Virus record (IMG/VR): IMGVR_UViG_3300045988_081376
DNA length: 64,000 nucleotides
Source: a virus
Direction: 5' to 3' (one strand)
Positions 7,996 through 35,243 of the stretch are shown here, piece after piece. Under the pieces are notes generated by a model. That model was not told the DNA's origin, did no database searches, and saw only the letters and a list, made by a program, of their open reading frames with translations. The number at the start of each line of letters is the position of its first letter. Position 1 is the first letter of the stretch. Made by a program: the position numbers and the translations under genes.

Positions 7996-8749
7996 AGCCC
8001 AGCACTCCCTGCCACTTCCCCTGTTTCTCAAGCACGTCTCTCGCGTATTCGCTCGCGCCGCCGTGGCCGGTGTTGTAAGCTGTAAGCGCATCTGTCAGGT
8101 TGCCGCATCCGTAAACGCCAAGCAAATGTGTCAGCACTGCGCATCCTGTGCGGAAATTCCCTGCCGGGTCCATCAGGTCGGTTACGCCGATGCTTTCTGC
8201 CGTCTTCGACCACCAGCGCGGCTGGATCTGGCAGTAGCCATAGCTCTTCCCGCCGTCTCCGATCTCGTTCTTGAAGTGCGTTTCCCGCTCGATCAGCGCA
8301 AGCATCAGCGGATAGTCCACCGAAAACTCCTCGCAAGCTCCATATAGGGCTTCCTGTTCCTCGTAGCTCAGAGGAACGGCCTCGCTGAAAGGGAAAGGGA
8401 TGTATGCGTACTCTTCCGCCACCGCGCCATCCGAGAAAACAAGCGCGTCATCGATCATCAGAACCGGCTGTGCATCCTCAGAGGGGAGTGTCGGGCATTC
8501 CGCGCTTTCCGTTTCGACAGCGGTCTCGGTCATCCTGATGTCGTGAAGCAGCTCTCCCACAACCCAGACCGCAATCAGAATGTTGACCAGCAGCATCAGG
8601 AATGCCAGATAAGGAAGAAGAAACGTCACCGCGTCCTCCGCCTTCTGGATGCGGCGCTGTCTGCGAATCTTTTTCCGCCGCTCGCGGCGTTCCATCTGTG
8701 CGATACGTGCTTGACGCTCCTTCGAGCTTTCGTTCGTTTCGAAATTCAT
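7988..8749 (-). CDS. membrane-anchored lytic transglycosylase (SLT domain)
   Basis: TM segment FLLPYLAFLMLLVNILIAVWVV. LMLALIERETHF..YGYCQI..AYNTG SLT catalytic pattern. Confidence 0.7.
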   Translation of the reverse strand: MNFETNESSKERQARIAQMERRERRKKIRRQRRIQKAEDAVTFLLPYLAFLMLLVNILIAVWVVGELLHDIRMTETAVETESAECPTLPSEDAQPVLMIDDALVFSDGAVAEEYAYIPFPFSEAVPLSYEEQEALYGACEEFSVDYPLMLALIERETHFKNEIGDGGKSYGYCQIQPRWWSKTAESIGVTDLMDPAGNFRTGCAVLTHLLGVYGCGNLTDALTAYNTGHGGASEYARDVLEKQGKWQGVLGYA

Positions 8750-9294: not shown

Positions 9295-10065
9295 TCATCC
9301 TCCGCGTTCCTGCGTCAGCCGCACTACCTTGCGCCGCAGCACCGTTTCGAATATCGGACGCAGTTTCTGGTCGCGGGCAATAACGTGCAGTTTCGACACG
9401 CCTTTGCACTCACTGGATGATGCGCCCATCCGGCTCATGCGATTCCGCAGCAGCGTCTGCCGGCGCTCGAGGTCGACGTGCGCCAGTCGTTCTACCTCAT
9501 CGTAGATGTCGCGGCGGAACATCTGGTGATTCAGACCGAACTGCTCGATGGTGGTGTTAATTTCCTTCTGCGCCCGCTCCTGCCAACCGTCGCTCTCCAG
9601 CATCGGCGCGGCCATCACCGCAAGCGCACCATCGAAGCGGTTCTGCTTTTCCTCCACAGCTTTCAAGCGGCGTTCCTGCTCGATATTGATTTGCGCCTGT
9701 AAGGAAAACATTTCTACGGGTGAAAGCACCTTTTGTCCGTATCCTCCGGTCTTGCGGATGGAGGGGAGGACTTCGCTTGTCACCCATTTGCGGAACGGTT
9801 TGGCTTCCGGCTTGTCCGACCGAAGAATCACATTGTACAGGCCGCTCTCGTTGATAATGGTGGTTTCCTGCTCCCGGCCCAGTGAATCGGTGAGGGGGAT
9901 CTGATTCCGCTCATCTTCATCAAGCCGGTCTGCAACCTTGTGGGCGCTTCCAAGCCCCAGTACGTTGCACACGTCTTTCAGGACAAACCACGGTTCGCCG
10001 TCTCGCTCCACCGTGCGGACTGTATTCCCGTGGTAGTGGTAATCGAAAATCCTCATTTCATTCAT
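9295..10065 (-). CDS. Bro-N-domain antirepressor
   Basis: FDYHYHGNTVRTVERDGEPWFVLKDVCNVLGL...KPFRKWVTSEVLPSIRKTG Bro-N signature. The C-terminal domain is homologous to that of 34431..35243. Confidence 0.8.
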   Translation of the reverse strand: MNEMRIFDYHYHGNTVRTVERDGEPWFVLKDVCNVLGLGSAHKVADRLDEDERNQIPLTDSLGREQETTIINESGLYNVILRSDKPEAKPFRKWVTSEVLPSIRKTGGYGQKVLSPVEMFSLQAQINIEQERRLKAVEEKQNRFDGALAVMAAPMLESDGWQERAQKEINTTIEQFGLNHQMFRRDIYDEVERLAHVDLERRQTLLRNRMSRMGASSSECKGVSKLHVIARDQKLRPIFETVLRRKVVRLTQERGG

Positions 10066-10247
10066 GGCGTTCCCTTCTGCCCTTCCTCTCTGAAAAGCAA
10101 CTCATTGACATCGCACTTATACAGGCGCGCAATTTCTGGTAGTCTGGACGTGCGAGGGGATGTAATCCCCGTCTCCCACTGATAGAGAGTCATCGTACTG
10201 ACACCAAGCCTTTCTGCGGCCTCTTTTTGCGATAAGTCCGCCCGCAC
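10062..10247 (-). CDS. Cro-like XRE-family HTH repressor
   Basis: LSQKEAAERLGVSTMTLYQWETGITSP HTH_3 motif. GTG start. Divergent from the cI-like gene and first gene of the leftward operon. Confidence 0.7.
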   Translation of the reverse strand: MRADLSQKEAAERLGVSTMTLYQWETGITSPRTSRLPEIARLYKCDVNELLFREEGQKGTP

Positions 10248-10304
10248 TCGGCAGACCTTGAACCCGTTTGCGATAAAGCATCACCACTTTCTTCTTAGCA
10301 TCTT

Positions 10305-10330
10305 CTTAGTTTCGCTTGACATTTACTAAG
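10305..10330. promoter_or_regulatory. inverted repeat CTTAGT-N14-ACTAAG bracketing the -35 box (operator candidate)
   Basis: CTTAGT at 10305-10310 and ACTAAG at 10325-10330. Related tandem TCTTCTTAG x2 at 10290-10309. Confidence 0.4.
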
Positions 10331-10344
10331 TAAGGCTGTACAAT
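10316..10344 (+). promoter_or_regulatory. sigma-70-type promoter, rightward
   Basis: TTGACA (10316-10321), 17-nt spacer, TACAAT (10339-10344). Confidence 0.6.
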
Positions 10345-10390
10345 GCCTCTTGATAGAAATAAATAACAGCTTCACATAAGTAAACGTATC

Positions 10391-10425
10391 GCGAAGCATC
10401 CTTGCTTTTTGCTTCGCTTTTGCTT
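10391..10425 (+). terminator. terminator-like hairpin in the leader between the promoter and the cI-like gene
   Basis: GCGAAGCA (10391-10398) / TGCTTCGC (10410-10417) followed by TTTTGCTTTG. Confidence 0.4.
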
Positions 10426-10432
10426 TGTAATG

Positions 10433-10449
10433 CTAAGTATATCACTTAG
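10433..10449. promoter_or_regulatory. 17-bp palindrome CTAAGTATATCACTTAG (operator candidate)
   Basis: Half-sites CTAAGT/ACTTAG are the same hexamer family as the repeat at 10305-10330. Confidence 0.4.
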
Positions 10450-10521
10450 TTTTACGAAGTCAACGTTTGTTTTTGTTGTTGCGCCTATTTCTGCAATTCG
10501 CACAATACTAAGGGGTTCTAT

Positions 10522-10863
10522 ATGGATATTTCGACAATGCTTCATAGGGTCGATCTGCTTTTGCGCGCAAAGGGATTATCAAAAGCTGAATTTTATGGCA
10601 TGGTGCCAATCTCATCTTCTGCCGTTGCGCAGTGGAATATGGGGCGCACCAAACCGTCTCCGCCGAAAATCAAAAGGATGGCTGAAATATTAGATGTTGA
10701 CCCATCTTATCTCGGATTAGGTGATATAGATGGTGAAAAAAAAGAGCCTGCCGCCCAGGAGGGCAGCAAACTCAATGTGCTGGATCTCAGCGACTTGACG
10801 CCTGAGAATCGCGCAAAGGTGCGAGATTATTTTGATCTCGTCGCACGTTCTCAAGATAAGTAA
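10522..10863 (+). CDS. cI-like XRE-family HTH repressor
   Basis: LSKAEFYGMVPISSSAVAQWNMGRTKPSPPKIKRMAEIL HTH_3 motif. RBS AAGGGG. Divergent from the Cro-like gene. Confidence 0.7.
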   Translation: MDISTMLHRVDLLLRAKGLSKAEFYGMVPISSSAVAQWNMGRTKPSPPKIKRMAEILDVDPSYLGLGDIDGEKKEPAAQEGSKLNVLDLSDLTPENRAKVRDYFDLVARSQDK

Positions 10864-10985
10864 GCGCTTTTATTTTGTTTTCCGGTGTCATGCGCTCAAA
10901 CAGTTCATACACCTCTTTTTGCAGGCCGTCTATCGCATCCATTCTGTTCGCCCTTCTCCTTCTCTCATTCTGTGTTCCGTTAATA

Positions 10986-11024
10986 CCGGAGCCGCCGCAC
11001 CAGCCACGAAAGCGGCGGCTCCGG
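10986..11024 (+). terminator. strong GC hairpin downstream of the cI-like gene (possible terminator)
   Basis: 13-bp stem CCGGAGCCGCCGC / GCGGCGGCTCCGG. The T-run starts only about 10 nt later, so it is not canonical. Confidence 0.35.
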
Positions 11025-11216
11025 GCATAGCAGATTTTTGTTTCACCGTTGATCTGCTATGAGTCTATCGTAGCAAATTTATTCTCGACCGTCTATGAGA
11101 CAACCTTCCTATCCGTGCGCCATCATCTTCCTATTCGACACGGTCCGACTTTATTCGCTGAGCGAAAATGACGATGTGCGAAAAAGCGCAGCAAGCAGTA
11201 GAAAGGGGCTGAAACA

Positions 11217-11708
11217 ATGCCGGAATGCTTAGAAGAAAATATATCTGATGAAAGCTTGGCTTTGAAAGAAATATTGAGAGCCAAAAGAGACTTGCTGGGA
11301 TTATCGAACCAGGCGATAGCAGATGCCGCCGGTCTTTCCGTTCATACGGTCAACAATTACTTTTCCAGCCGCTCCAAGGCGACCAGCGCTTATGTCGTTC
11401 TCCGCATTGCAAAAGCGCTGAATTGTTCGATCGATAATGTTTGCGGAATAGAATCTGACGAAAATTCGTCCGATTCGTCAGAGGAAGTGGAATCCATCAA
11501 CGCTCAGCATCAGGATGAGATCATTGCCATGCAGGAACGCCAGATCAGCGATCTGCGCAAAGATAAAAGGGCGGGGCGGTTTGCTATTTATCTTTCGGTT
11601 GTCCTCTCCGTGATCGTCCTCATTTATTTCTTCCATTTTGATGTGCCAAATCCCAACTGGGGCTTTACAAAACTCATGAGGGATTTCTTTTTATGTTTTG
11701 CAAAATAG
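11217..11708 (+). CDS. membrane-anchored XRE-type HTH protein
   Basis: LSNQAIADAAGLSVHTVNNYFS HTH, acidic linker, C-terminal TM FAIYLSVVLSVIVLIYFFHF. Ends in TAG. Confidence 0.65.
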   Translation: MPECLEENISDESLALKEILRAKRDLLGLSNQAIADAAGLSVHTVNNYFSSRSKATSAYVVLRIAKALNCSIDNVCGIESDENSSDSSEEVESINAQHQDEIIAMQERQISDLRKDKRAGRFAIYLSVVLSVIVLIYFFHFDVPNPNWGFTKLMRDFFLCFAK

Positions 11709-11760
11709 AACATTCGTTCTCCGTCTCTTAACAGCCACGTTGTAGAAGGGTGATAGCAAT

Positions 11761-12897
11761 ATGAGGAAATGTATAAAATGCGGCACGGAACTGCCGGAAG
11801 GAGCCATCTTTTGCCACATTTGTGGGAAGAAACAGGTGCAGGAAAAGCGCCGCGGTCGAATGAGACAAAACGGGCAAGGCAACGCTTATCGGCGCGGGTC
11901 TACATGGACAGGACGTGCAACAGGATATTCTTATACCGTCGTAGACGAAAATGGTGATGCAAGGCTAATCCGGAAAAGACCCACGAAGGGCGGCTTTAAA
12001 ACAAAAACGGCAGCGCTGGAATGGGCGGCCGCACAGGATGTACAGCAGGTGAAGAAGGAGCCACCCACCCTATTGGAACTTTGGCAGGGATGGAGCGAGA
12101 ACGACTTGCTCACTCGCTCGAAGGACAAGCAGATCGCCTACAGAAAAGCACGCGAGCGCATTGAACCGATCATTGCAAGAAAAATAAGCGATCTGACTAT
12201 CGACGACTTACAGTCTACCGTCAACGCCGGAGCAAAATCGTATTACACCGCCCGAGACATGAAATCCCTGCTCTCTAATTTGTATCAAAGGGCGATGGCG
12301 AGCGGAGGAGGCAACGGATGGGTAACGGTGAATCTTTCCCGCTTCATCGTGCTTCCGGAGCTGGAAGAAAAAGTGCCAGAGCCGTTTACCGAGGATGAAG
12401 TCAGTGCCATGTGGAAAGCGTGGGATGAAGGAAATGTTTTCGTTGGATATATGCTGCTGATGATCTATACGTCAATGATGCCCGGAGAGCTGCTTTCGTG
12501 CAAAACCGATATGATCGACTATGACCGGCACGAAATTTACGGATGCGGTAAAAAGACAAAGAAACGAAAAGATACCCCTATTGTATTCCCTGAGTTCATC
12601 GAGCCGGTCCTGAAGGAATTAAGCAAAAAGTCCACCAGCAAAACAGGTAAAATATTCGGTGGAGATGAAGGAACCTTCTATTCGGCTTACCATTCCGCTA
12701 CAAGAGCGATCGGCGTGCGGGACTTAAACCCGTATTCCTGCCGTCACACAACGGCAACAGAGGCCGTCAAGAAAGGCGTGGAGCTTCCCGTCGTACAGCA
12801 GATCATGCGCCACTCTAAACTAGCATCGACGCAAAGATACATCCACGTCTCTACGGAAGCCGCGCATAAGGCCATCAATCAGCTGACAAAGCAATGA
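11761..12897 (+). CDS. int: tyrosine integrase with N-terminal zinc ribbon
   Basis: MRKCIKCGTELPEGAIFCHICGKK zinc ribbon. C-terminal catalytic region SCRHTTATEAV...IMRHSKLASTQRYIH (R..HxxR..Y). Confidence 0.9.
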   Translation: MRKCIKCGTELPEGAIFCHICGKKQVQEKRRGRMRQNGQGNAYRRGSTWTGRATGYSYTVVDENGDARLIRKRPTKGGFKTKTAALEWAAAQDVQQVKKEPPTLLELWQGWSENDLLTRSKDKQIAYRKARERIEPIIARKISDLTIDDLQSTVNAGAKSYYTARDMKSLLSNLYQRAMASGGGNGWVTVNLSRFIVLPELEEKVPEPFTEDEVSAMWKAWDEGNVFVGYMLLMIYTSMMPGELLSCKTDMIDYDRHEIYGCGKKTKKRKDTPIVFPEFIEPVLKELSKKSTSKTGKIFGGDEGTFYSAYHSATRAIGVRDLNPYSCRHTTATEAVKKGVELPVVQQIMRHSKLASTQRYIHVSTEAAHKAINQLTKQ

Positions 12898-12956
12898 GTT
12901 TGTAGCCCATTTCTCGTGGGATGTTACAGCGATCGTGTAGCCCATTTTGTAGCCCA
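12898..12956 (+). repeat. arm-type direct repeats TGTAGCCCA x3 (integrase-proximal arm of attP)
   Basis: Copies at 12901-12909, 12936-12944 and 12948-12956, all in the same orientation. Confidence 0.6.
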
Positions 12957-13025
12957 CAGAGCAAAATTAACCAAACCAAATCCAGCCAAAAGTTGCAAAA
13001 ACATGTTTCGTGAAAAATAAGAAAA

Positions 13026-13297: not shown

Positions 13298-13546
13298 TCA
13301 GCGGCGCTTACTGCGAACGTTCTCACCATCGATTTCCTTGAATTCCACCTTAGAAACGCGGAACCCATTTGGAACGATTACAGAATTTTTTCTGGCTGCA
13401 TCCCGTTCCGCCATCACGCGCTCGAACTCGAGTTTCAGTGCTGCAAAGCATTCTGCGCAAACTCCGAGTGATGGCGCGCGCCGAATGTTGTCATCCAGCG
13501 CAGACAGCACCGCGCGATCTCTTTCGTTGCATTTATCCGTCATCAT
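13298..13546 (-). CDS. hypothetical protein
   Basis: ORF track. Last gene of the operon and overlaps the upstream gene end. Confidence 0.4.
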   Translation of the reverse strand: MMTDKCNERDRAVLSALDDNIRRAPSLGVCAECFAALKLEFERVMAERDAARKNSVIVPNGFRVSKVEFKEIDGENVRSKRR

Positions 13547-14464
13547 TGTCTCCTATCACTATCTGGCCGTCAAGCTCGCCATCGCCTTTCGCTCCACCAT
13601 TCAACCACCATTCCATGACGGCCTCTCCGCTCGTGAAGTAAGTAGGCGGCTTATTCATGCCACGTCGCTCTCTTTCTTCGATCATTTTATTGAACGATCT
13701 GACATACTGTTCTCTGTATTTGGGCCAGCGCTCAAACTCTTCTGCCGCACGCGTATTCATTGGGCAGCCGATGCACCCGACGCGCTTGAAGCCCTCGTCG
13801 TACAATCCGCAATATGGCACATCATACTCCTTGATAAATTCCCAAACTTCGTCGTCCGTCCAGTCTATGATCGGGTTTAAGGTCGTTTTTGCTTTTTGAT
13901 AGCACTGCTCAACAAGGCGGCGTGTTTCGCCGTTATCGTTGTTTAGAACCACCCCCCCGCACGGTTGATAAAAAGGGGATTTCCCCTCGATATTCCAGAT
14001 ATTGTCTTAGCTTTAGTCGCAAAAGTTATCAAACCTTGATTTTTCTTCCGGTTCACGCTTTCATCCCATCGGACGCCGGTGATGGTAACTCTTCCCTTCC
14101 CTCCGGTTTCTTTCAGTTGCGCGCAGCAGTATCGCACAAGGCGCGTCGGCGGCATTAGCTTTTTGGGGATCAGCGTCCACATGGTAATAGGGTTTCCGTC
14201 TTTATCTTTTGGTACATCGCGTGAAACGTCGGGATAAACATCACGGATAAATTGAACGAGCTCCGGCGGGTCTACGCTCGTTACACGATAATGCGCATCG
14301 TATTTCACTCCTGCAAGGTCGCAGAGCTTTTTGACGACTACACTATCTTTTCCGCCGCTGAACGCCAGATAATACCCATCAGGCGGCTCGAAGTGCTTCA
14401 GGCGGTCGATTGCGATCTGAACCTTATCGACCGTTCCGAAGACGGTGTATTCGATCAGCGCCAT
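13533..14464 (-). pseudogene. PAPS-reductase-like PP-loop protein split by a frameshift in a G7 run (C7 on + strand, 13952-13958)
   Basis: ORF 13943..14464 carries the PP-loop FSGGKDS. ORF 13533..13952 carries the C-terminal NPIIDWTDDEVWEFI..GCIGCP part. The frames join seamlessly if the run were G8. Confidence 0.75.
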
Positions 14465-17599: not shown

Positions 17600-17755
17600 T
17601 TATTCCCGTTGATATCCGCCTCCGCCGTAAAGTAGCGGTGCGCTCGTTGATGTATACGATTCTGCCGTGTACGGTTTGAGCTTTTCGAAACCGCAAATGC
17701 CGCTCGCGCCCTCAAAGGCTGCGGGTGTCCAGCTGTATGTGTCTCCGGTGTTCAT
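17600..17755 (-). CDS. hypothetical small protein (51 aa)
   Basis: MNTGDTYSWTPAAFEGASGICGF... ATGA overlap with the upstream gene stop. Confidence 0.3.
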   Translation of the reverse strand: MNTGDTYSWTPAAFEGASGICGFEKLKPYTAESYTSTSAPLLYGGGGYQRE

Positions 17756-18423
17756 GCGTCCTCCCTTATGTCCCCTCCCCATTGCTCCGCCATAGCTTTA
17801 GCGATGCCGGGGAAGGTCTTTGCGAGGTTTTTTGCTCTATCTGTGGTAAACATGCCTTTGTGCTGTGCCCCATGCTTATGGCTGTAACTGCCACTCGGAC
17901 ACCATGTTGCTACCGGTTCAACGATGTTTGTCGGCTCCAACGGCTGGACACCACGCTCCCACAGCAAGGTTTTTTTGCTAAACGGGTGCCCGTATTGATA
18001 GGGCTGTATGGCTTGGGTTGGCTCTGGATACTCAAAGACTTTACTCGGCGTCGGATTCTCAATCACAACTTTTTCGCAATCCGCTGCCCAAATAGCTAAA
18101 AACAGCGCTTTGCCGCACAAGCCCTCATAATACCGCTTGATATTGAGCTTACCGCCCCTATATAAGTGCCGCGCTCCGGCGTTGCTTGTCTTAGTGCAGG
18201 GAGGGAAAGCAATAATCATATCCCACCGTCCCACATCATGGGTCTGTCCATCCATAGTGGTCACTTGCCCCCCCTCGATGGCCTTGAGCGCATCGCCTAA
18301 GATATGCCACTCCGGGTGTCCGCCGGACGGCTCCTGAATGTCACAGGAATATGCCTCATGTCCCAATGCCCGGAACGCTTTGCAAACTTCCTGCGATTCC
18401 TCGCAGGCAACTAAAACCTTCAT
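17752..18423 (-). CDS. DNA (cytosine-5) methyltransferase-like protein
   Basis: FPPCT (motif IV-like), VIENP (motif VI-like) and a C-terminal FPGIAKAMAEQW. The N-terminus VLVACEESQ replaces the usual FxGxG, so activity is uncertain. Confidence 0.45.
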   Translation of the reverse strand: MKVLVACEESQEVCKAFRALGHEAYSCDIQEPSGGHPEWHILGDALKAIEGGQVTTMDGQTHDVGRWDMIIAFPPCTKTSNAGARHLYRGGKLNIKRYYEGLCGKALFLAIWAADCEKVVIENPTPSKVFEYPEPTQAIQPYQYGHPFSKKTLLWERGVQPLEPTNIVEPVATWCPSGSYSHKHGAQHKGMFTTDRAKNLAKTFPGIAKAMAEQWGGDIREDA

Positions 18424-18424
18424 C

Positions 18425-19504
18425 TCAATACCTCACTCCGATAAAATCCAGCACTCGGCCATAGCCGAGGCCCTTTTCATTTGGCTTCCACATCCCGTCA
18501 GCAGGATCGTAAGCCCCGCCGCCGATGCAGAACTCATAGTGCTTCGGATGCGTGTGCTTCATGCGCTCGAATCGGTTCTCGCCCTTTTCGAGATGTGCGC
18601 CAAATGCGCAGAACATACAGCCTGTGCGCTGGCAACCCGTGCAATGCAGCTTGCAGTCGATCAGCGTTTTGGTGTAGTCGTTCTCGCCGTCACTGGCCAC
18701 AATGTCACCGTAGACACTTGCGATAGGGATTTGCCGGTCTACGATAAACCGTAATACGTCCTGCTCCGTCCAGAAACTCATGGGCTTAGATAAGGGACGC
18801 CTTCCTTCAAAGGCGTTGCAGCCGGTTTCGCGCCATTTTTGCATACGCAGAAGACTTTCCTCCGCCATTGTTGCCGTCGTGGGCTTGACATCCGCTCGGT
18901 GCTCATAGCTCTTTGACGGGGACTTTTTCATAATTCCACAGCACTTGTCTGATATGAGAAATGGAGCCGAAAGCAAATACTCCCACTTTTCACAGTTGTA
19001 CATACTCTTTTCCCCATCGGCGCGTAAGACTTCCCCTCGCAATAGCTTCATACTTCGGCTATCTGGTGAACGCCGCGCGGTTTCTATCCTGTGCGCTACG
19101 TCTTTACCGATGATGCTGTACCCGTACTTCGTCACCACCTGCCGAATGTTCATCTTCGGGCGTAGACGGTGAAGGTTTACGGTCACGCGGGGAAACTCCC
19201 TCCGCAGCCAGTCGGCGTACTCATTGACGAACTTCTGTATCTCCGGGTACTCCAGCCCTGTGTTCACAAACACCAAGTGCAGCTCCCACGGCGGTGCCCT
19301 GAAACTCGACAGGTAACGCGCCGCCAAGTATGCCAGCACCGCGCTATCCTTTCCACCGGAAAAACTGACATAGCACCTCCCGCCCCATGCGGTGTACCAC
19401 TGGTCGAGCTTTTCGTAAGTCAGGATTTCTTTGTCTTCCAGATCGAGTGCTAAGAGCTGTTTCGCCGCCTCTTTCGGAATCGGCTGATTGCTATACTCTT
19501 CCAT
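18425..19504 (-). CDS. PAPS-reductase-like PP-loop protein with C-terminal Cys cluster
   Basis: SFSGGKDSAVLAYLAARY PP-loop. C-terminal CTGCQRTGCMFCAFG cluster. Confidence 0.8.
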   Translation of the reverse strand: MEEYSNQPIPKEAAKQLLALDLEDKEILTYEKLDQWYTAWGGRCYVSFSGGKDSAVLAYLAARYLSSFRAPPWELHLVFVNTGLEYPEIQKFVNEYADWLRREFPRVTVNLHRLRPKMNIRQVVTKYGYSIIGKDVAHRIETARRSPDSRSMKLLRGEVLRADGEKSMYNCEKWEYLLSAPFLISDKCCGIMKKSPSKSYEHRADVKPTTATMAEESLLRMQKWRETGCNAFEGRRPLSKPMSFWTEQDVLRFIVDRQIPIASVYGDIVASDGENDYTKTLIDCKLHCTGCQRTGCMFCAFGAHLEKGENRFERMKHTHPKHYEFCIGGGAYDPADGMWKPNEKGLGYGRVLDFIGVRY

Positions 19505-20182: not shown

Positions 20183-20415
20183 CTCACACCCTCCGTTTTC
20201 ACAAAATGCAAAACCATGTCATACCCCTGATCGGTTTCGATGATGTCCCACGAGTGTCCTTCACTAAGTTCATGACCGTCTCGGATCTCGATCCGCCGAT
20301 CTTTGCTGTCGCCATCGGCATCGCTGTTTTTATATTTCAAGTACGGATAATGCGTCTGCGAGCAGCCGACCAGCAGCACCGTAACCGTCGCCGCAGCGAT
20401 TAGGATTCGTTTCAT
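20179..20415 (-). CDS. phage lipoprotein
   Basis: MKRILIAAATVTVLLVGC signal peptide with lipobox behind AAGGAGAGGG. Confidence 0.6.
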   Translation of the reverse strand: MKRILIAAATVTVLLVGCSQTHYPYLKYKNSDADGDSKDRRIEIRDGHELSEGHSWDIIETDQGYDMVLHFVKTEGVR

Positions 20416-21016
20416 TTCCCTCTCCTTCATTCCGCGGCGGGCGCGGCAGCGGCTGGTAGATCGTTTGTGTGTTTCTCATCCACGGTGTCAGCCAGACGCA
20501 CCACATCACATCCATCAGGGGACTGCCGCTATCGCCGTCCCCTCGTTCCTTAAAGAAGAAATCGGGGCGCCACGTCAGGGGAAGTATGTAGCTCGGCGGG
20601 ATCTCTTCAAAAAGTGCCATTCTCTTCGCCGCGTGCCAATACTGTGACTTGAGCAGCATCGCAAAGGGCTTTTGAATTTCCGCTGCACGGCGAATAAAAT
20701 CCTCCGCCAGCGAAAACGGCGGGTTCGTGATGATCCAATCAAAGCTTGTGAGAATTCTTTTGAAAATACCGGGGCTTAAAAAGTCGAACCCTTCGGATAT
20801 ATCCGTTCCGAATGAGCTGCCATATCCGCACGCCCTGATCACGTCCAGCATATCCCCCTCGCCCGCCGCAGGCTCCCAAATGGTCGTATTTTTCGGCAGG
20901 TTCAGAAATTGAAGAAGGGCGACCGTCGCCTCCGGCGGCGTCGGGTAAAAGTCGGCCTGTCTGCGCCCTCTCGCGCTGTTGCCGCCAGCTATCCTGCTCG
21001 CATTCAAGCTATCCAT
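20330..21016 (-). CDS. N6-adenine-type DNA methyltransferase (NPPF class)
   Basis: ADFYPTPP, WEPAAGEGDM (SAM site) and ITNPPF motifs. ATG at 21016 behind GGGAGG. The 3' end overlaps the lipoprotein gene by 86 nt. Confidence 0.8.
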   Translation of the reverse strand: MDSLNASRIAGGNSARGRRQADFYPTPPEATVALLQFLNLPKNTTIWEPAAGEGDMLDVIRACGYGSSFGTDISEGFDFLSPGIFKRILTSFDWIITNPPFSLAEDFIRRAAEIQKPFAMLLKSQYWHAAKRMALFEEIPPSYILPLTWRPDFFFKERGDGDSGSPLMDVMWCVWLTPWMRNTQTIYQPLPRPPRNEGEGNETNPNRCGDGYGAAGRLLADALSVLEI

Positions 21017-21018
21017 AT

Positions 21019-21702
21019 TCAACCTCCCGCAAACAAACTGATCTGCGCTGTGTGTTCCGCAAAGCGCTTTTCCTGCGCCTGAAAATAGTGAGGGTCGATC
21101 TCGCACCCAACAAAATCAAAGCCAAGATCATAGGCGGCTATGCGGCTGCTGCCGCTGCCCAAGTGGGTGTCCAGTATCTTGTCTCCCGGTTTGGCGTACT
21201 TCTGCAAAATCCATGTGTACAAAGCCACTGGCTTTTGCGTTGGATGAATTCGCACTTCGTTCAGCGCCTTGTTTCCCTGCTGTGTTGTGCCGTCCCTGAT
21301 GCTTTTCCCTTGAAACATCCCGTTCCACATATAGCGGAATATCCGAACGCTGTCATGAACGTTTGTCGCCGCGATCTCGCAGTCCGAAAAGGAGCTACTG
21401 TCGTTGCACTTATCCCAAACGATACGCCCCGGTGGAAACACGACGTCGAAGTAATTGCAGCCCCAGACAATGTACTTTTTCGCCACGCGCGCCAGTTCGA
21501 AAAAATAGTCAATTCCCGGAACATCCCACTTCGGTGATATGGGATAGTCTCGATGTACGCCAATGGGGCTGATCTTACAGCCATAATAGCCACGCCGCTC
21601 CGGACCGCTGAAATATGGAGGGTCTACCACAGCCAGATCGAACGCCTTGTCCGGTGTCGCCCGCATATACTCCATGCAGTCCGTGTTATATGCTACGTTC
21701 AA
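21019..21702 (-). CDS. N4/N6 DNA methyltransferase (DPPY class)
   Basis: VVDPPY, IHPTQKPVAL and DTHLGSGSS motifs. Confidence 0.85.
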   Translation of the reverse strand: MNVAYNTDCMEYMRATPDKAFDLAVVDPPYFSGPERRGYYGCKISPIGVHRDYPISPKWDVPGIDYFFELARVAKKYIVWGCNYFDVVFPPGRIVWDKCNDSSSFSDCEIAATNVHDSVRIFRYMWNGMFQGKSIRDGTTQQGNKALNEVRIHPTQKPVALYTWILQKYAKPGDKILDTHLGSGSSRIAAYDLGFDFVGCEIDPHYFQAQEKRFAEHTAQISLFAGG

Positions 21703-28372: not shown

Positions 28373-28912
28373 ATGGAAGAAATCTGGAAGGAAATCGAAG
28401 GGTTCCGTGGGAAATACTTCGTGAGCAATTGGGGGCGTGTCAAAAATAAAGCCGGTCGAATTATCAGCCAGCACGCTCGAAAAAGCAGATATAACTATGT
28501 TGAAGTAGAACTGTGGCTGGACACCGTCAGGCATTTGTGCAAAGTGCATCGTTTAGTGGCAAAAGCATTCGTTGAAAATCCGTGTCATTATCCAGAGGTC
28601 AATCACAAAGACGAAAACCATCTCAACAACCGAGCCGATAATTTAGAATGGTGCGACCATCTATATAATTGCAGATACGGGACGAGGGGAGCTCGCATAG
28701 GTGCAAAGCTTTCTCGATCGGTCATCCAGTTGAAAAACGGGGAAATCGTCGCCGTATGGGACAGTGTTAGAGCCGCTGAAAAAGCAGGGTACACCCGCGC
28801 AAGCATCGTAAGATGCTGTAACGGAGAATATTCGCACCATAAGGGATACCAATGGGAATTCTTTAATGCGGGCATAGCTCAGCTAAGAAGAGCGCACGAG
28901 CCATATTCGTGA
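28373..28912 (+). CDS. HNH homing endonuclease (NUMOD4-like N-terminus plus HNH_3)
   Basis: WKEIEGFRGKYFVSNWGRV, then VHRLVAKAF..EVNHKDENHLNNRADNLEW. The 3' end runs into the first tRNA-like gene. Confidence 0.8.
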   Translation: MEEIWKEIEGFRGKYFVSNWGRVKNKAGRIISQHARKSRYNYVEVELWLDTVRHLCKVHRLVAKAFVENPCHYPEVNHKDENHLNNRADNLEWCDHLYNCRYGTRGARIGAKLSRSVIQLKNGEIVAVWDSVRAAEKAGYTRASIVRCCNGEYSHHKGYQWEFFNAGIAQLRRAHEPYS

Positions 28913-28941: not shown

Positions 28942-29240
28942 AAATCAAATGAAAGGGGCGAGTTATCGAATGTATTTTTACGAGCCTTCTTGCGCTGCGA
29001 TCAGGCTCATCGCGCAAATACTCGCCCTTGCGGTCTACTTGATCTCCCACCCGATCATGCCCGCAGAATCGTATCAGCGCCCCGCGCAGGCGCACAAGTG
29101 CGGTGATGGAAGACTCTATACCACGGGGTTTATCTAGTGCCGATTTGTGGGTGGGAATTGTGAAATGCAACTAATAGGGCGTTCTATCGGAGCGAGGATT
29201 GAGCGAAAGACTCCCCTCGCCGCCCTCGTTCCGATATATG

Positions 29241-29316
29241 CGGCGGTAGCTCAGCAGGCAGAGCATCAGACTTCCAATCTGAGGGTCGCGGGTTCGAGAC
29301 CCGTCCGCCGCTCCAC
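29241..29316 (+). tRNA. tRNA-Gly(UCC)
   Basis: GCGGCGG acceptor, GCTC-AGCAGGCA-GAGC, TCAGA-CTTCCAA-TCTGA, GCGGG-TTCGAGA-CCCGT, U73, encoded CCA. Confidence 0.9.
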
Positions 29317-29630: not shown

Positions 29631-29709
29631 GCATCCGTAGCTCAGAGGGGCAGAGCGTCGAGGAATTTCACGCCTCTAAATGTCGCCGGTTCGAGTCCGG
29701 CCGGATGCA
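29631..29709 (+). tRNA. tRNA-Glu(UUC)-like, 79 nt, expanded anticodon arm
   Basis: GCATCCG/CGGATGC acceptor with canonical D and T arms (GCCGG-TTCGAGT-CCGGC). Anticodon arm is GAGG-AATTTCACG-CCTC, i.e. a 9-nt loop, or ATTTCAC closed by A.G. Confidence 0.5.
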
Positions 29710-29920
29710 CTAATTCGACGTGGACGCCGCGAGTGGATAGCGTTTTAGCGGAGCAGCCGCCTGGCCGATGCGAAGTCCTGAAGTAAGGCCCTCAAGTGCC
29801 GATGTTGTAATTGCGCCTATGGTTCTCTGGCTAAAGCGGCACACGGATAGAACCCGACAGCCGGGAAAGACCGGCACAGGACCCCGCGCACCTCTCAACG
29901 ATGTGTCCCAGCGGGGACAT

Positions 29921-29995
29921 ACAGGCGTAGCCAAATGGTAAGGCATGGGACTTTGACTCCCAGATATGCAGGTTCGACCCCTGCCGCTTGCACCA
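29921..29995 (+). tRNA. tRNA-Gln(UUG)
   Basis: GCCAAATGGTAAGGC D arm, TGGGA-CTTTGAC-TCCCA, GCAGG-TTCGACC-CCTGC, A1.C72 mismatch, encoded CCA. Confidence 0.85.
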
Positions 29996-30026: not shown

Positions 30027-30302
30027 ATGACCAAACCCGAGTTGATCGACAAGCTTGCCGAGGAAGCCGGCACCACCAAGGCGCAGGCTGAGCGCGATCT
30101 CACCGCCCTGTATTCCATCATCACTGCCGCCCTGGTTGGCGGCGATAGCGTCGCCATCCCTGGTATCGGCAAGTTCGAAGTCAAGGAGCGCGCCGAGCGC
30201 AAGGGGCGCAACCCCTCGACCGGCGAAAGCGTCATCATCCCCGCGAGCAAGGCCGTCACCTTCAAGGCGGCCAAAACGCTCAAGGACGCCGTTCGCGGCT
30301 GA
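30027..30302 (+). CDS. HU/IHF-family DNA-binding protein
   Basis: MTKPELIDKLAEEAG.TKAQAE..L......I..AL..GD.V...G.GKFEVKERAERKGRNP.TGE...IPA....FKA.K.LKDAV is a full-length HU pattern. RBS AAGGAGG. Confidence 0.9.
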   Translation: MTKPELIDKLAEEAGTTKAQAERDLTALYSIITAALVGGDSVAIPGIGKFEVKERAERKGRNPSTGESVIIPASKAVTFKAAKTLKDAVRG

Positions 30303-30464: not shown

Positions 30465-31097
30465 ATGCCATCTGCCATCAACTTAACCGGCCAGCGGTTC
30501 GGACATCTTCGAGTAATCAGACCCATGAAAACACGTTCATATGGAAGTTTAAAATGGCTTTGCGTATGCGACTGTGGAAAGGAAACCATTGTCGCCGGCG
30601 GGCATCTGCGGTCAGGGCATACAAAGTCCTGCGGGTGTCAAAGAAATGCAATAAATCCTATGAAGACACACGGCGAATCGAAAACGCGCTTGTATAACGT
30701 TTGGCTTCTCATGCGGAGAAGATGCTCCAACCCAAAAGCCAAAGAATATGCTCGATACGGCGGTAGAGGTATCGCTGTTTGCGAAGAATGGCAGAACAGT
30801 TTCGAAGCGTTCCGCGACTGGGCGCTTGCAAACGGGTATAATAAAAATGCCGCCTATGGTGAATGCACCCTCGACCGCATTGATGTGAACGGGAACTACT
30901 GTCCAGAGAATTGCCGATGGGCCAATGAATTGGTTCAGGCAAACAATCGGCGTTCAAATCGCGTATTTGAAATTAACGGGCAAGCAAAAACGTTAGCAGA
31001 ATGGTGTCGGATGACCGGCGCTTGCGATTCGACAGTTCGCCGCAGAATTGCCCGTGGGGTTCGGGTAGAAAATCTATTCAAGAAAGGGCGGGTTTAA
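30465..31097 (+). CDS. HNH/AP2-like homing-endonuclease-family protein, paralog 3 (long form)
   Basis: [57 protein letters not shown]-terminal [25 protein letters not shown]. Confidence 0.7.
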
Positions 31098-31098
31098 A

Positions 31099-32184
31099 AT
31101 GTCTTATTATTTTGATAGCGCAAGCACGGAAGAAGTTTCAAGCGTTGCGTGGGAAGCCATGAAGCAAGCCCCATTTGGCAACCCATCCAGCCTGCACAGT
31201 GAAGGATGGCGCGCAAGAGAATCTTTGGAGCGTAGCCGCGCTCAAATTTTATCATTATTAGGCGCTGGCAATAACTATGAACTTTATTTCACCAGCGGAG
31301 CAACGGAGGCGTGTAATACCGCTATTCATTCCATGCAAAAAGCTGTCGGAATTTCAGAAACTTATGCGTCGCCTTTTGAACATCATGCGATATTGGAATG
31401 CGTTTCTGGGCGGGTTCTTCCAAATGATAAAGTCGCAAACACGGGTGCTTATGCGCAGATGCTCGCCAATAACGAGACTGGAGAGATTTACGATATTGCG
31501 GCCCTGCGGGGGAGTTTTTCAGGACTTCTTGCCTGCGATATAACAAGCGCCGTTGCACACATCCCCATCAACCTTCTGGATTTCAATGTGGATTACGCTA
31601 TGTTCGGCGGTCATAAATTTGGAACTCCAAAAGGCATCGGCGCTCTGATCGTCCGCGATGGCGCTCCCGTTACCCCCATGATCTGCGGCGGCAATCAGGA
31701 ACGCGGAATGCGCGGCGGAACCGAGAGCGTTGCCCTCGCCTGCGCTATGGCAGCCGCCCTTGAAAAGCGCTGCGAAACCATGTATGATGACATTGCCCGC
31801 ATCGCAGAGCTGCGCGACGAGTTCATTACCGAAATTCTCCGTCTCGTGCCGGATGCCTACATCAACGGCCCTTGGGTCATCTGCGACGCATCGCGCCGCC
31901 TGCCCAATAACGCCAACATCAGCTTTCTCGGCGTGGAATCGCAGTCCCTTGTGCTCGCCCTGTCTCGTAAGGGGCTGTGCGCCTCCAGCGGCAGCGCCTG
32001 CACCAGCGGCAGCCTTGAAGGAAGCTACGTTCTCCGCGCCATGGGGCTTTCCGAAGAGCGCGCCCGCTCCGCCGTCCGCTTCTCCCTCCCGTATCGCATT
32101 ACGCAAGGCGAGCTGAAGCAGGCGGTTGAGATCGTCGTGAGTACCGTTTCCGAGCTGCGCGCACTCTCTCCCGCTTGCCCCTGA
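31099..32184 (+). CDS. NifS/IscS-type cysteine desulfurase (class V aminotransferase fold)
   Basis: FGNPSSLHSEG, FTSGATEACN, PLP lysine in GGHKFGTPKGIGALIV, RGGTES, catalytic Cys loop ASSGSACTSG, and RFSL near the C-terminus. Confidence 0.85.
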   Translation: MSYYFDSASTEEVSSVAWEAMKQAPFGNPSSLHSEGWRARESLERSRAQILSLLGAGNNYELYFTSGATEACNTAIHSMQKAVGISETYASPFEHHAILECVSGRVLPNDKVANTGAYAQMLANNETGEIYDIAALRGSFSGLLACDITSAVAHIPINLLDFNVDYAMFGGHKFGTPKGIGALIVRDGAPVTPMICGGNQERGMRGGTESVALACAMAAALEKRCETMYDDIARIAELRDEFITEILRLVPDAYINGPWVICDASRRLPNNANISFLGVESQSLVLALSRKGLCASSGSACTSGSLEGSYVLRAMGLSEERARSAVRFSLPYRITQGELKQAVEIVVSTVSELRALSPACP

Positions 32185-32213
32185 TATCGAAATTTTCAAA
32201 GGAGTTTTTTGCC

Positions 32214-32504
32214 ATGAAAATTCTTGACCCCGGCGCCGTGCTGCGCTATAAGGCCCTCAAAGAATCCGCCAATCATCTCGCGGTCGCCCCCTTTATCAAG
32301 ATCGTTTCCCTCGACCCGTGCGAGGAACGCGAGACCGCCGGCATCGGCCTTGAGTTCCCCAACAACTGCGCAATGATGAACCCCGGCGTTCGCAACGCCG
32401 TTTCGTTCCTTTTCGCCCAATGCGACACCGTGCAGATGAACCGCACCGACGCAGGTATTTCCCTCGTCTTCACCATTTTCAATGTCTGGAAGGAGGAACC
32501 GTAA
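32214..32504 (+). CDS. hypothetical protein
   Basis: MKILDPGAVLRYK... behind AAAGGAG. Confidence 0.45.
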   Translation: MKILDPGAVLRYKALKESANHLAVAPFIKIVSLDPCEERETAGIGLEFPNNCAMMNPGVRNAVSFLFAQCDTVQMNRTDAGISLVFTIFNVWKEEP

Positions 32505-32719
32505 TGCCGAACCTGAAAGCCAACGTGATCCCCCGCCTTTATATCGTCCGCGCCGCCAGCCCCAAGAATCCCGCCCTTGTCTATATGGATATGGTCGAGG
32601 CGGAATCGCCGCAGAAGGCGAAAATGCTCTCCAAATTTTACGGCGATCCCAAACTCACCATTCTGAGCGCCGACCCCGCGCCGGCAGAAAGCGAATCAGG
32701 TGCTTCCCATGCAGAGTGA
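32504..32719 (+). CDS. hypothetical protein
   Basis: MPNLKANVIPRLYIV... behind AAGGAGG. TAATG junction with the upstream gene. Confidence 0.45.
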   Translation: MPNLKANVIPRLYIVRAASPKNPALVYMDMVEAESPQKAKMLSKFYGDPKLTILSADPAPAESESGASHAE

Positions 32720-33005
32720 AGTCGAGCAGATGAAGCGCCTTGCCGACAATATCTGGAAGTACATCGAGCCGAAGGTCGATAAGAAGATCGAGCCATATTT
32801 CAAGGTCATCCGCGCTACCGTCACCTCCGCCGCATCCGGCGGTCTGATGGGCGTGCAGTTTCCCTTCGATGAATCCCCGATCTCCATTCCCTATGTCACC
32901 TCCATGGCGTCCTCGAGAGTGGGCGACAGCGTATGGGTCGCCATCCCCTATTCGAAGATGCAGAACGCCTTCGTTATCGCCTCTTCCCTCTTCAAGAATC
33001 TGTGA
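32709..33005 (+). CDS. small OB-fold-like protein resembling baseplate-spike/DUF2577-type phage proteins
   Basis: ATVTSAASGGLMGVQF...ISIPYV...RVGDSVWVAIPY..MQNAFVI pattern. Weak. Confidence 0.4.
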   Translation: MQSEVEQMKRLADNIWKYIEPKVDKKIEPYFKVIRATVTSAASGGLMGVQFPFDESPISIPYVTSMASSRVGDSVWVAIPYSKMQNAFVIASSLFKNL

Positions 33006-34060: not shown

Positions 34061-34101
34061 TTGACATTGTGGCTAACAACATCTATAATGTAGTTAACCA
34101 C
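34061..34101 (+). promoter_or_regulatory. consensus promoter flanked by an inverted repeat
   Basis: TTGACA (34061-66), 17-nt spacer, TATAAT (34084-89). GTGGCTAAC (34069-77) / GTTAACCAC (34093-101) bracket the -10. Confidence 0.65.
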
Positions 34102-34298: not shown

Positions 34299-34430
34299 AG
34301 AAATGGCCCCCTCTTTGAGCTTTAGTTTGCAGACCTAACGCAAAGAAGGAGCCTCCCAGAGGAAACCTCATGGTAAATTTATTATACTGCGTCGAATTTC
34401 CTCTGTCAAATTGAATTTGTGGAGGACTTT

Positions 34431-35243
34431 ATGAACGAATTGACTATCATTAACAACACGCAGGTTCTCGTCAAGGAATTCTCCGGCCAGCGCGTCGTCA
34501 CCTTCAAGGAGATCGACGCCGTGCATGGCAGACCGGACGGGACAGCCCGCAAGCGGTTCAATGACAACCGCGAACACTTTATCGAGGGCGAAGATTTCTT
34601 CAAAATAACGCCGTCCGAATTTCGGACGGCGATCGGAGAGATGGATGCCCGCCAGCAGAATGACGTCACCCTCATCACAGAATCCGGCTATCTCATGCTG
34701 GTAAAATCCTTTACCGACGATCTCGCGTGGAAAGTCCAGCGCGAACTTGTCAACGGATATTTCCGAGCCAAGGCGGCCAACTCTCAGTTTGCTTCCCTCT
34801 CTCCCCAGCTTCAGGCTCTTATCAGTATTGAGATGCGCCAGCAGGAGCAGGAGCGCCGTATGGACGAGCTTTCCAGCCGCTTCGAGCAGAACGCAAAGCG
34901 CATGGACAATCTCGCCGCCGCTTGGTCTGCCCCGCTTGCATCGGGAGACAACTGGCAGGAATCCGCCAACCGCGCGATCAATGCCATCGTGCAGCATTTC
35001 GGACTCAATCACCAGAAATTCCGCCACGACATTTACGAGGAACTGGAGCGCGCCGCGGGCGCAGACCTCCAGCAGCGTCTCACCCGCCTGCAAAACAGAA
35101 TGGCGGCATCCGGAGCCACGGCCACGCAGCGCAGAGCTGTCAATAAACTCACCATCGTTTCGCAGGATCGGAAACTGCGCGCCATCTTTGAAAGCATCCT
35201 GCGCTGCCGCGTCACCGAACTGAACGCAGCGCGCATCGACTGA
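34431..35243 (+). CDS. ORF6N/KilA-N-type antirepressor (second antirepressor)
   Basis: QVLVKEFSGQRVVTFKEIDAVHGRPDGTARKRFNDNREHFIEGEDFF ORF6N pattern. The C-terminal 90 aa are homologous to those of 9295..10065. Confidence 0.8.
   Translation: MNELTIINNTQVLVKEFSGQRVVTFKEIDAVHGRPDGTARKRFNDNREHFIEGEDFFKITPSEFRTAIGEMDARQQNDVTLITESGYLMLVKSFTDDLAWKVQRELVNGYFRAKAANSQFASLSPQLQALISIEMRQQEQERRMDELSSRFEQNAKRMDNLAAAWSAPLASGDNWQESANRAINAIVQHFGLNHQKFRHDIYEELERAAGADLQQRLTRLQNRMAASGATATQRRAVNKLTIVSQDRKLRAIFESILRCRVTELNAARID

Follow-up and report, generated by a model that had tools for sequence, protein, structure and literature searches.

Sulfur enters iron-sulfur (Fe-S) clusters, thio-cofactors and thiolated tRNA by way of cysteine desulfurases, and the locus described here raises the question of why a temperate phage would carry such an enzyme of its own and to what it would pass the sulfur. 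The gene, which encodes a class-I (NifS/IscS-type) cysteine desulfurase of 361 aa at 31099..32184 on the + strand, lies in a 64,000-nucleotide stretch of viral DNA (IMG/VR record IMGVR_UViG_3300045988_081376) that is called here, over its full length, the window. A preliminary description of this DNA had seen an intact desulfurase with all of its catalytic features, close to tRNAs of the family that carries 2-thiouridine at position 34 (s2U34) and in the company of two DndC-like enzymes, and had raised both a tRNA-thiolation route and a minimal phosphorothioation (PT) route. As judged by its alignments, the protein is a short form specific to phages rather than a standard NifS, and nearly all members of a group of temperate phages of the human gut, ~40-120 kb in size, carry it. 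The reading that we favor, with moderate confidence, is that it is an active, trimmed class-I desulfurase whose C301 persulfide would be passed to host acceptors.

A trimmed desulfurase with conserved catalytic residues

The open reading frame (ORF) begins with ATG and is intact, as had been claimed, and both of the motifs picked out in the preliminary description are present. GGHKFGTPKG (aa 170-179; 31606..31635, +), the pyridoxal 5'-phosphate (PLP) binding motif, contains H172 and K173, which align to IscS H205 and K206, with the Schiff-base Lys codon at nt 31615-31617. The mobile catalytic loop SSGSACTSG (aa 296-304; 31984..32010, +) carries the persulfide-forming Cys301, which aligns to IscS C328 and is encoded at nt 31999-32001. 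H95, N125, D147 and R327 are the equivalents of IscS H104, N155, D180 and R354, and in a conservation set of 76 unique short-form protein sequences (345-374 aa) H95, N125, D147, H172, K173, T208, C301 and R327 are all invariant. Pfam Aminotran_5 (PF00266) matches the protein at 3.2e-38 (132.1 bits against a gathering cut-off of 21.5), its PHROG match is phrog_12787 (3.1e-75), and the closest solved structures are those of E. coli IscS and human NFS1, with E about 1e-51. An AlphaFold2 model built on an alignment of 38 clade members has a predicted template modeling score (pTM) of 0.81 and in Foldseek reaches a query template modeling score (TMq) of about 0.8 to NFS1, IscS and NifS; its predicted local distance difference test (pLDDT) is low at residues 299-304, as expected because the persulfide-Cys loop is flexible. 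The median pairwise dN/dS is 0.25 over 457 pairs (clade A plus L248), and the gene is therefore maintained as a protein. Fold, residues and purifying selection all agree with the earlier assignment of a cysteine-desulfurase-type enzyme.

The statement that all catalytic features are present holds for the Lys, the Cys and the other catalytic residues, but not for the Gln that hydrogen-bonds to PLP O3' in IscS (Q183), which is replaced by Ser150, nor for about 28 residues of the large domain, which are gone. Ser150 falls in CDITSAV (31534..31554, +), where Asp147, the partner of PLP N1, is retained; across the 76 sequences the Q183 position is Ala in 69 and Ser in seven, and Gln in none. In alignments to IscS and NFS1, the absent segment corresponds to IscS ~117-146, which forms a strand and a helix in the large domain, and in its place is a hypervariable stub (31390..31449, +; aa ~98-117) that is common to clades A, B, C and L248 and is poorly modeled (pLDDT <50 at residues 87-94 and 97-116). 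Another substitution is Cys72 (codon 31312..31314, +), which stands in ATEAC-N in place of the Asp of the canonical ATESDN and is conserved in 100% of the 76 sequences, the residue being Asp in IscS, L043, P0140 and P0143. The window protein further differs from IscS by a 5-residue insertion, PWVIC, and by the absence of the IscS C-terminal tail, and clades B and C are also without the GGxQERGxR loop. Independent phage acquisitions (clade D, on ~180-217 kb contigs, and the L043 type) and cellular NifS keep both the Gln and the complete segment.

Profile scores are low. Each of the NCBIfam equivalog matches is broken into two stretches and falls below its threshold, at roughly half of the cut-off or less: 278.7 bits against 530.75 for NifS (TIGR03402), 226.2 against 643.2 for IscS (TIGR02006) and 175.4 against 480 for DndA (TIGR03235). 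A protein search recovered a large clade of 351-368-aa homologues at 51-96% identity, mostly on contigs the longest of which are ~58-77 kb. In a 50%-identity representative library this clade is a single representative, followed by other short forms, which likewise reach contigs of 58-77 kb, and then by ordinary NifS proteins of 375-400 aa at ~40% identity. Sorted by desulfurase identity to the window, clade A lies at 49-96%, E and L248 at 40-48%, and B and C at 34-40%.

The window copy is also an intragenic mosaic. Identity to the P0002 lineage is 84% over the N-terminal half (aa 1-190) and 61% over the C-terminal half. The C-terminal half matches the P0003-type lineage at 85-95%, and the N-terminal half matches clade members other than P0002 at 43-50%; this pattern indicates recombination within the gene.

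A regular component of a group of temperate gut phages

That the window is phage DNA is borne out by genes for a portal, a tape measure protein, RecT/RecE, DnaC/DnaD, Ant and two integrases, alongside several HNH homing endonucleases and several DNA methyltransferases, and this gene content indicates that the phage is temperate. Relatives were collected by scanning IMG/VR with the desulfurase, the neighboring ORF6N gene and the integrase, together with local BLAST; the integrase scan gave only four loci with a single sequence and was repeated with an alignment. The desulfurase is flanked on both sides by phage genes on contigs of 37-120 kb from many samples, a setting that marks it as phage-encoded and not host DNA. 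All of the 80 integrase-anchored relatives (integrase 50-99% identical) that have enough flank carry both HU and the desulfurase, except L393 and L394, and every syntenic ORF6N-anchored locus has the desulfurase.

The order of genes is kept as well: a tRNA cluster, HU, a variable slot and the desulfurase follow one another even where the integrase is on the other side (clades B and C), and in 155 fetched loci HU lies <4.5 kb upstream of the desulfurase. The window's HU-type DNA-binding protein is 91 aa from an internal ATG (30027..30302, +; Pfam Bac_DNA_binding 5.6e-32), as it is called in L001; the mechanical ORF begins at 29988 and overlaps tRNA-Gln. The slot that follows is occupied in the window by an HNH homing-endonuclease-like ORF (30465..31097, +; phrog_374 1.5e-70) whose stop lies 1 nt before the desulfurase ATG. 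This insert is restricted to the window, L001/L006/L007 and the 74% group; clade B has a MazF/PemK gene there and L002 has small ORFs, and the slot is thus variable and holds no conserved partner. In clade B locus L052 (7008-11585), a PemK/MazF-like toxin gene sits between HU and the desulfurase with stop and start codons that overlap, a helix-turn-helix (HTH) gene comes next, and the tRNAs are interrupted by an IS605 OrfB/TnpB gene.

Downstream, the ORFs at 32175-32504, 32420-32719 and 32700-33005 were considered as candidate carriers or scaffolds and gave no NCBIfam matches; those at 32175-32504 and 32700-33005 have no PHROG match, and the former has no Pfam match either. An ORF6N-domain, anti-repressor-like gene (34419..35243, +; Pfam ORF6N 1.9e-16), syntenic in relatives, marks the downstream lysogeny-control region, and beyond it is the tyrosine integrase that served as the anchor gene of the phage group (35536..36540, +; phrog_1 1.3e-35). 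A promoter scan detected no consensus promoter between the tRNAs and the desulfurase and neither a promoter nor a terminator of the desulfurase's own. It did find two perfect 12/12 sigma-70 consensus promoter-like sites, divergent, at 34061-34089 (+) and 34409-34381 (-), ~2 kb downstream of the desulfurase and just upstream of the ORF6N gene, which are probably the lysis-lysogeny switch.

The only clue to the host is a 96%-identical copy on a 62-kb contig binned with an uncultured Oscillospiraceae metagenome-assembled genome, and the host family is probably Oscillospiraceae. In INPHARED, a DNA search found no close relative of the window phage, and full-length desulfurase matches in a protein search were at most 41% identical, many of them on short unannotated contigs deposited under phage names.

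The desulfurase follows a tRNA cluster

The tRNA-Glu(UUC) and tRNA-Gln(UUG) genes previously noted near the desulfurase are both supported by ARAGORN and Rfam. The former (29631..29710, +; Rfam 45.9 bits) is an atypical 80-nt species with its anticodon at position 37, and the latter (29921..29995, +) scores 60.5 bits; with a tRNA-Gly(UCC) absent from the preliminary description (29240..29315, +; ARAGORN, Rfam 68.6 bits), there are three tRNA genes 1.1-1.9 kb upstream of the desulfurase on the same strand. The placement just downstream of a phage tRNA cluster is conserved: in a census of the unique loci whose upstream sequence extends for at least 3 kb, all 85 have tRNA genes on the strand of the desulfurase and no more than 6 kb upstream of it.

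The identities of these tRNAs are another matter. Nearly all of the 85 loci have a tRNA-Gly, 55 have Gln(UUG), four have Glu(UUC) and none has Lys, with Met, Trp, Pro and Thr also present. In clade A1 (≥60% identity, n=8), Gln(UUG) occurs in seven loci and Glu(UUC), Gly(UCC) and Gly(CCC) in four each, and in clade A2 (49-59%, n=29) Gly(CCC) is found in 28, Gln(UUG) in 24 and Trp in 16. The 27 loci of clades B and C (<40%) all have Met(CAU), along with Gly(UCC) in 24, Gln(UUG) in 23 and Pro(UGG) in 17, while those of clades E and L248 (40-48%, n=21) have Gly(UCC) in every case, Met(CAU) in 18, Thr(CGU) in 16 and Gln(UUG) in one. Since identities shift by clade, the tie to a tRNA cluster is conserved and the tie to the Glu/Gln/Lys s2U34 family is not; the link is architectural. 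The proposed coupling to s2U34 tRNAs is thus ruled out by the census as a conserved feature, and MnmA was not found in the window.

Unusual tRNAs occur at the same position in many relatives. Among them are tRNA-Glu(UUC) genes of 80-82 nt whose anticodon falls at position 37, tRNAs with A34 that are read as Phe(AAA) and Ile(AAU), and tRNA-like genes read by ARAGORN with a 2-nt 'anticodon' (for example, window 29631-29710, L002 8219-8292, L015 5928-6002 and L026 7127-7203). Clade D, an independent acquisition, also has its desulfurase near tRNAs and a Thg1-like tRNA-repair gene, which lends weak extra support to a connection with tRNA. In L082 (7588-19858 of a ~217-kb contig) the full-length, Gln-retaining enzyme is encoded between ThyX and a UvrD-like helicase, and in phages of this type (~180-217 kb contigs) it lies 3 kb from the Thg1-like tRNA-His guanylyltransferase/tRNA-repair gene and 5.5-9 kb from six tRNA genes.

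PAPS-reductase-like genes and the phosphorothioation question

The preliminary description had pointed to two 3'-phosphoadenosine 5'-phosphosulfate (PAPS) reductase-like PP-loop proteins. One of them, here PAPS#1 (18425..19504, -; 359 aa), is indeed a PP-loop protein with SGGKDS, matching phrog_424 at 6.5e-41 and Pfam PAPS_reduct only over aa 44-100. The other, PAPS#2 (13533..14464, -), is not one ORF: its PP-loop half (14464->13943, 173 aa, SGGKDS; phrog_424 4.4e-18) ends in a stop, and its C-terminal part (…DEGFKRVGCIGCP…, with GCIGCP) is in a separate frame, a split that could reflect a sequencing error, a pseudogene or a programmed shift. The label 'DndC-like' applies to the ~60-90 residues around the SGGKDS PP-loop and to nothing beyond them. 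PAPS#1 matches SspD (1.7e-7), BrxP (7e-7) and DndC (4e-3) only over aa 31-118, PAPS#2 matches BrxP at 2.5e-5, and an NCBIfam search of the PAPS-like ORFs gave no DndC match. PAPS#1 also has the cysteine pattern CC ... CxxxCxxC...CxxC and a Cys-rich C-terminus, a set suggestive of an Fe-S or Zn site.

It could be imagined that the desulfurase donates sulfur to these PP-loop enzymes for a phosphorothioate-like DNA modification or another sulfur-containing modification of nucleic acids. PAPS#1 does adjoin a DNA methyltransferase, directly downstream of it (17752..18423, -; phrog_757 8e-51) and forming a cassette with it, and in clade E five contigs have PAPS#1 as well as the desulfurase. Yet in the window PAPS#1 is 11.6 kb from the desulfurase and on the opposite strand, and the cassette is sporadic in the group: L246, a close relative (HU 93%, ORF6N 96%), keeps the desulfurase and has no PAPS#1 across the equivalent region, and L248 likewise has the desulfurase without it. 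PAPS#1 has at least 599 close relatives in IMG/VR, and among the best 80 of these, mostly on other, smaller contigs of 31-47 kb, none has a desulfurase within 3 kb. The cassette is highly mobile: a methyltransferase 98% identical to that of the window occurs in L106, whose desulfurase is only 52% identical.

The remaining components are missing as well. All minimal PT sets defined by experiment, namely dndCD, sspBCD or brxP plus brxC, together with any desulfurase, include a DndD/SspC/BrxC-type ATPase (PMC12914056). No such ATPase domain was found in the remaining large ORFs of the window, where the sole credible Walker A motif among ORFs of at least 150 aa is that of the DnaC-like loader, and no dndBCDE, sspBCD or brxPC genes neighbor the desulfurase. 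PADLOC models for SspA and DndA do match it (273 and 264 bits), but they are non-discriminating because the ordinary full-length NifS-like protein of L043 outscores it (434 and 424 bits), and these matches were set aside as evidence for phosphorothioation. With profile coverage limited to the PP-loop, a frameshift in PAPS#2, no co-inheritance and no ATPase, a Dnd, Ssp or BREX-4 reading was rejected, and the minimal PT route proposed earlier falls with it; as far as gene content can tell, the desulfurase is not part of a phage DNA-phosphorothioation system.

Pairs of this kind do exist elsewhere. In L043 (8652-14225), which belongs to another lineage of gut phages, a 450-aa phrog_424-like PP-loop gene overlaps by 4 nt the start of a full-length, 376-aa desulfurase gene, after which come a 248-aa ORF and a 633-aa C5 DNA methyltransferase. 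The adjacency is kept in 8/8 loci of the L043, L260-L267 lineage (desulfurase identity 69-100%), making this arrangement a candidate sulfur-dependent nucleic-acid modification module. It is not that of the window's lineage, and 64 of 72 relatives of the L043 PP-loop protein have no adjacent desulfurase. Our literature search turned up no experiments on what phrog_424-type phage PAPS-reductase-like proteins do.

Where the sulfur may go

If the short form is active, what accepts its persulfide? A tblastn search with IscU found none in the phage clades or the window. IscU or MnmA adjoin the desulfurase only in loci of cellular type that came up in the IMG/VR scan as well (L042, L044-L048, L065, L069 and L078), where IscU matches are found in L042, L044, L045, L047, L048, L065, L069 and L078 and MnmA in L046 alone. 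In the window, SGGxDS PP-loop motifs are confined to the two PAPS-like ORFs, no search with ThiI's own sequence having been made. As there is no phage-encoded scaffold (IscU/NifU), thiouridylase or complete PT set, the desulfurase would stand alone, and the persulfide of an active enzyme must go to host acceptors. By homology, the PLP bound to K173 would form an external aldimine with L-cysteine, whose sulfur would pass to C301 of the SSGSACTSG loop as an enzyme-bound persulfide, with release of alanine; the persulfide would then be handed to host acceptor proteins. Such an extra sulfur donor, supplied by the phage, would raise or redirect the flux through the host sulfur relay during infection or lysogeny.

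As to the sink, our lean toward tRNA thiolation is slight and tentative, with Fe-S assembly a close second. The leading guess is host synthesis of tRNA thionucleosides, 4-thiouridine at position 8 (s4U8) or s2U34, by way of host ThiI or MnmA, which would serve the tRNA genes lying upstream on the same strand and presumably co-transcribed with the desulfurase. We lean this way because the block of tRNAs, HU and desulfurase is invariant, because class-I desulfurases of Gram-positive bacteria pair directly with ThiI (NifZ) or MnmA (YrvO) (PMC5372745), and because there is a precedent in lambda: how IscS sulfur is divided between the thiolation of tRNA and the assembly of Fe-S clusters alters the efficiency of lambda infection, with flux to tRNA thiolation favoring the phage (PMC3296357).

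Several observations weigh against an active enzyme that feeds host tRNA thiolation. With the PLP-O3' Gln and ~28 residues gone, and the GGxQERGxR loop too in clades B and C, the activity or specificity of the subfamily could be altered; a dN/dS of 0.25 is loose for a housekeeping-type enzyme; and the best hidden Markov model match is the Fe-S-type NifS. The identities of the neighboring tRNAs are not enriched for thiolated species, clade E having Gly, Met and Thr, and since the tRNA synteny was inherited from one ancestor it counts as essentially one observation, suggestive rather than statistical proof. The host, finally, is known solely through one binned contig.

The possibility that the enzyme instead sustains Fe-S proteins while an infection or prophage induction is under way, by feeding the NifU/IscU or SUF scaffold of the host, is the strongest of the alternatives, even if we consider it on balance unlikely. 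TIGR03402, the Fe-S-type NifS, outscores the IscS and DndA models, and the top structural neighbors, IscS and NFS1, are found in iron-sulfur cluster (ISC) complexes. The proteins served could belong to the host or be Fe-S proteins of the phage, and the Cys-rich PAPS-reductase-like proteins are candidates for the latter, for the CC...CxxC-type cysteines of PAPS#1 are compatible with a 4Fe-4S site, which we take to resemble that of APS reductases. In work cited within PMC12839542 and PMC12914056, moreover, DndA is reported to assemble the cluster of DndC. However, no phage locus has a scaffold gene, the family-search matches in the window include no radical-SAM or other obvious Fe-S enzyme, and in lambda and E. 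coli the Fe-S branch protects the host and is not pro-viral (PMC3296357).

A narrower form of the tRNA idea, which we regard as doubtful, is that the short form is a dedicated phage-encoded donor for tRNA thiolation that would pass its persulfide directly to host ThiI or MnmA. The role in thiolation would then be what keeps the tRNAs, HU and desulfurase together across clades, moves of the integrase notwithstanding, and the trimmed surface and Cys72 would reflect a changed partner interface. Were this so, the enzyme would be without precedent among phages as a component of a tRNA sulfur-modification pathway, and the phage tRNAs would carry thiolation that tunes decoding or frameshifting, as in lambda, or that protects them from defenses directed at tRNA. 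The gene layout upstream of the window's tape-measure gene, considered for a G/GT frameshift site, is not lambda-like.

Quite improbable, in our view, is lysogenic conversion, in which a prophage-expressed gene turning cysteine into alanine and persulfide or sulfide would benefit the lysogen rather than phage replication, through stress protection, cysteine detoxification or gut sulfide production. The phage is temperate by virtue of its integrase, the gene lies in an integrase-proximal, moron-rich region with variable inserts (HNH, MazF/PemK, IS605 TnpB), and cysteine desulfurases are reportedly among the viral auxiliary metabolic genes mentioned in virome surveys. But near-universal retention and fixed synteny across 34-96% identity are unusual for morons, which are normally sporadic, and no promoter or terminator of the gene's own was detected in the scan. 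The mobile Cys loop that distinguishes group-I from group-II desulfurases serves directed persulfide transfer, and its presence here points to such transfer over the release of free sulfide.

We think it more improbable still that the chemistry has changed (to a selenocysteine or persulfide-carrier substrate, for example) or that the protein is a decoy that titrates the host partners of IscS or NifS. The clade-wide loss of Gln183 and of the strand-helix unit and the gain of Cys72 would be its marks: these synapomorphies are in or near the PLP site and fixed in 76/76 sequences, with the GGxQERGxR loop lost in addition in clades B and C. An archaeal IscS without the catalytic Lys acts with IscU (PDB 4HVK, 4EB5), and a competitive-binding model has been put forward (PMC3296357). 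Against this, the residues for Cys binding and C-S cleavage (H95, N125, D147, H172, K173, T208, R327 and C301) are all invariant, which a pure decoy would not need. Least probable of all, for the reasons set out above, is that in this lineage the desulfurase serves the phage's PAPS-like PP-loop enzymes.

Other features of the window

At least three paralogous phrog_374 HNH homing-endonuclease-like genes and one of phrog_59 are present, at 4669-5154 (-), 7300-8091 (-), 30465-31097 (+) and 28373-28912 (+), and one HNH gene appears beside or inside the RecE-like exonuclease region (6687-8091). GC content is low at 10000-13000 (0.47-0.49 against about 0.55), where an HTH regulator is encoded at 11217-11708 and the second tyrosine integrase, which has a zinc ribbon at its N-terminus, at 11761-12897; this stretch is possibly a nested mobile element. 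Two overlapping methyltransferase-like ORFs, 20330-21106 (-) and 21019-21702 (-), match phrog_799 and phrog_23224; they may be two genes side by side or else the halves of a single DNA methyltransferase that has been split or frameshifted.

Comparison with known systems

A phage-borne desulfurase is of a kind already known, since papers on viral auxiliary genes mention such genes and PHROGs has an unlabeled family. In the literature we found no description of the short-form subfamily with its fixed active-site changes, of its near-universal status in a large gut-phage group or of its fixed position after a tRNA cluster, and no experimental work on phage cysteine desulfurases. The carriers are an abundant group of temperate human-gut phages, and a streamlined enzyme of their own that is near-universal and welded to a tRNA cluster suggests that control of host sulfur trafficking is regular in these phages and not a sporadic add-on. 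As a natural minimal class-I desulfurase (Gln to Ala or Ser, Asp to Cys, and the loss of a strand and a helix), the short form may be useful for enzymology and for the study of partner specificity. One over-reading can also be set aside: phage 'PAPS reductase' genes plus a desulfurase do not here make a Dnd-, Ssp- or BREX-4-like phosphorothioation system.

DndA and SspA (TIGR03235; PADLOC PDLC02657 and 02759; PDB 3VAX, 6M4J) are enzymes of the same class, from which the phage protein differs in its score (175 against 480 for TIGR03235) and in having no dndBCDE, sspBCD or brxPC neighbors or DndD/SspC/BrxC ATPase by its gene. The PP-loop and desulfurase operon of L043 and L260-L267 is also set in phages, and its phrog_424-type protein shares with PAPS#1 the CC...GCxxC cysteines. 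Its desulfurase, though, is full length (376 aa) and keeps the Gln (DAVQAV), and its PP-loop gene is directly adjacent (overlapping in L043), whereas in the window 11.6 kb separates the two genes, which lie on opposite strands and are not conserved together. The viral auxiliary-gene desulfurases grouped in phrog_12787, a family without an assigned function, are likewise phage-borne class-V PLP enzymes, but the family profile, with a length of 387, is of the full-length type.

With class-I NifS and IscS (TIGR03402, TIGR02006; PDB 1P3W, 3LVM, 1ECX; NFS1 5WKP), the short form shares the fold (TMq about 0.8), the PLP Lys, the stacking His, the Asp to N1, the phosphate-binding Thr from the partner subunit, the substrate Arg and Asn and the SSGSACTS persulfide loop. 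It departs from them in the ~28-residue deletion, in Gln183 to Ser or Ala and Asp79 to Cys, in lacking the IscS C-terminal tail, in reaching about half of the equivalog cut-offs and in being phage-encoded and never beside IscU or NifU. The YrvO-MnmA and NifZ-ThiI pairs of Bacillus subtilis are likewise class-I, Gram-positive in setting, without an Fe-S scaffold and linked to tRNA biology (PMC5372745); where these have mnmA or thiI alongside, the phage gene has tRNA genes and HU as its neighbors.

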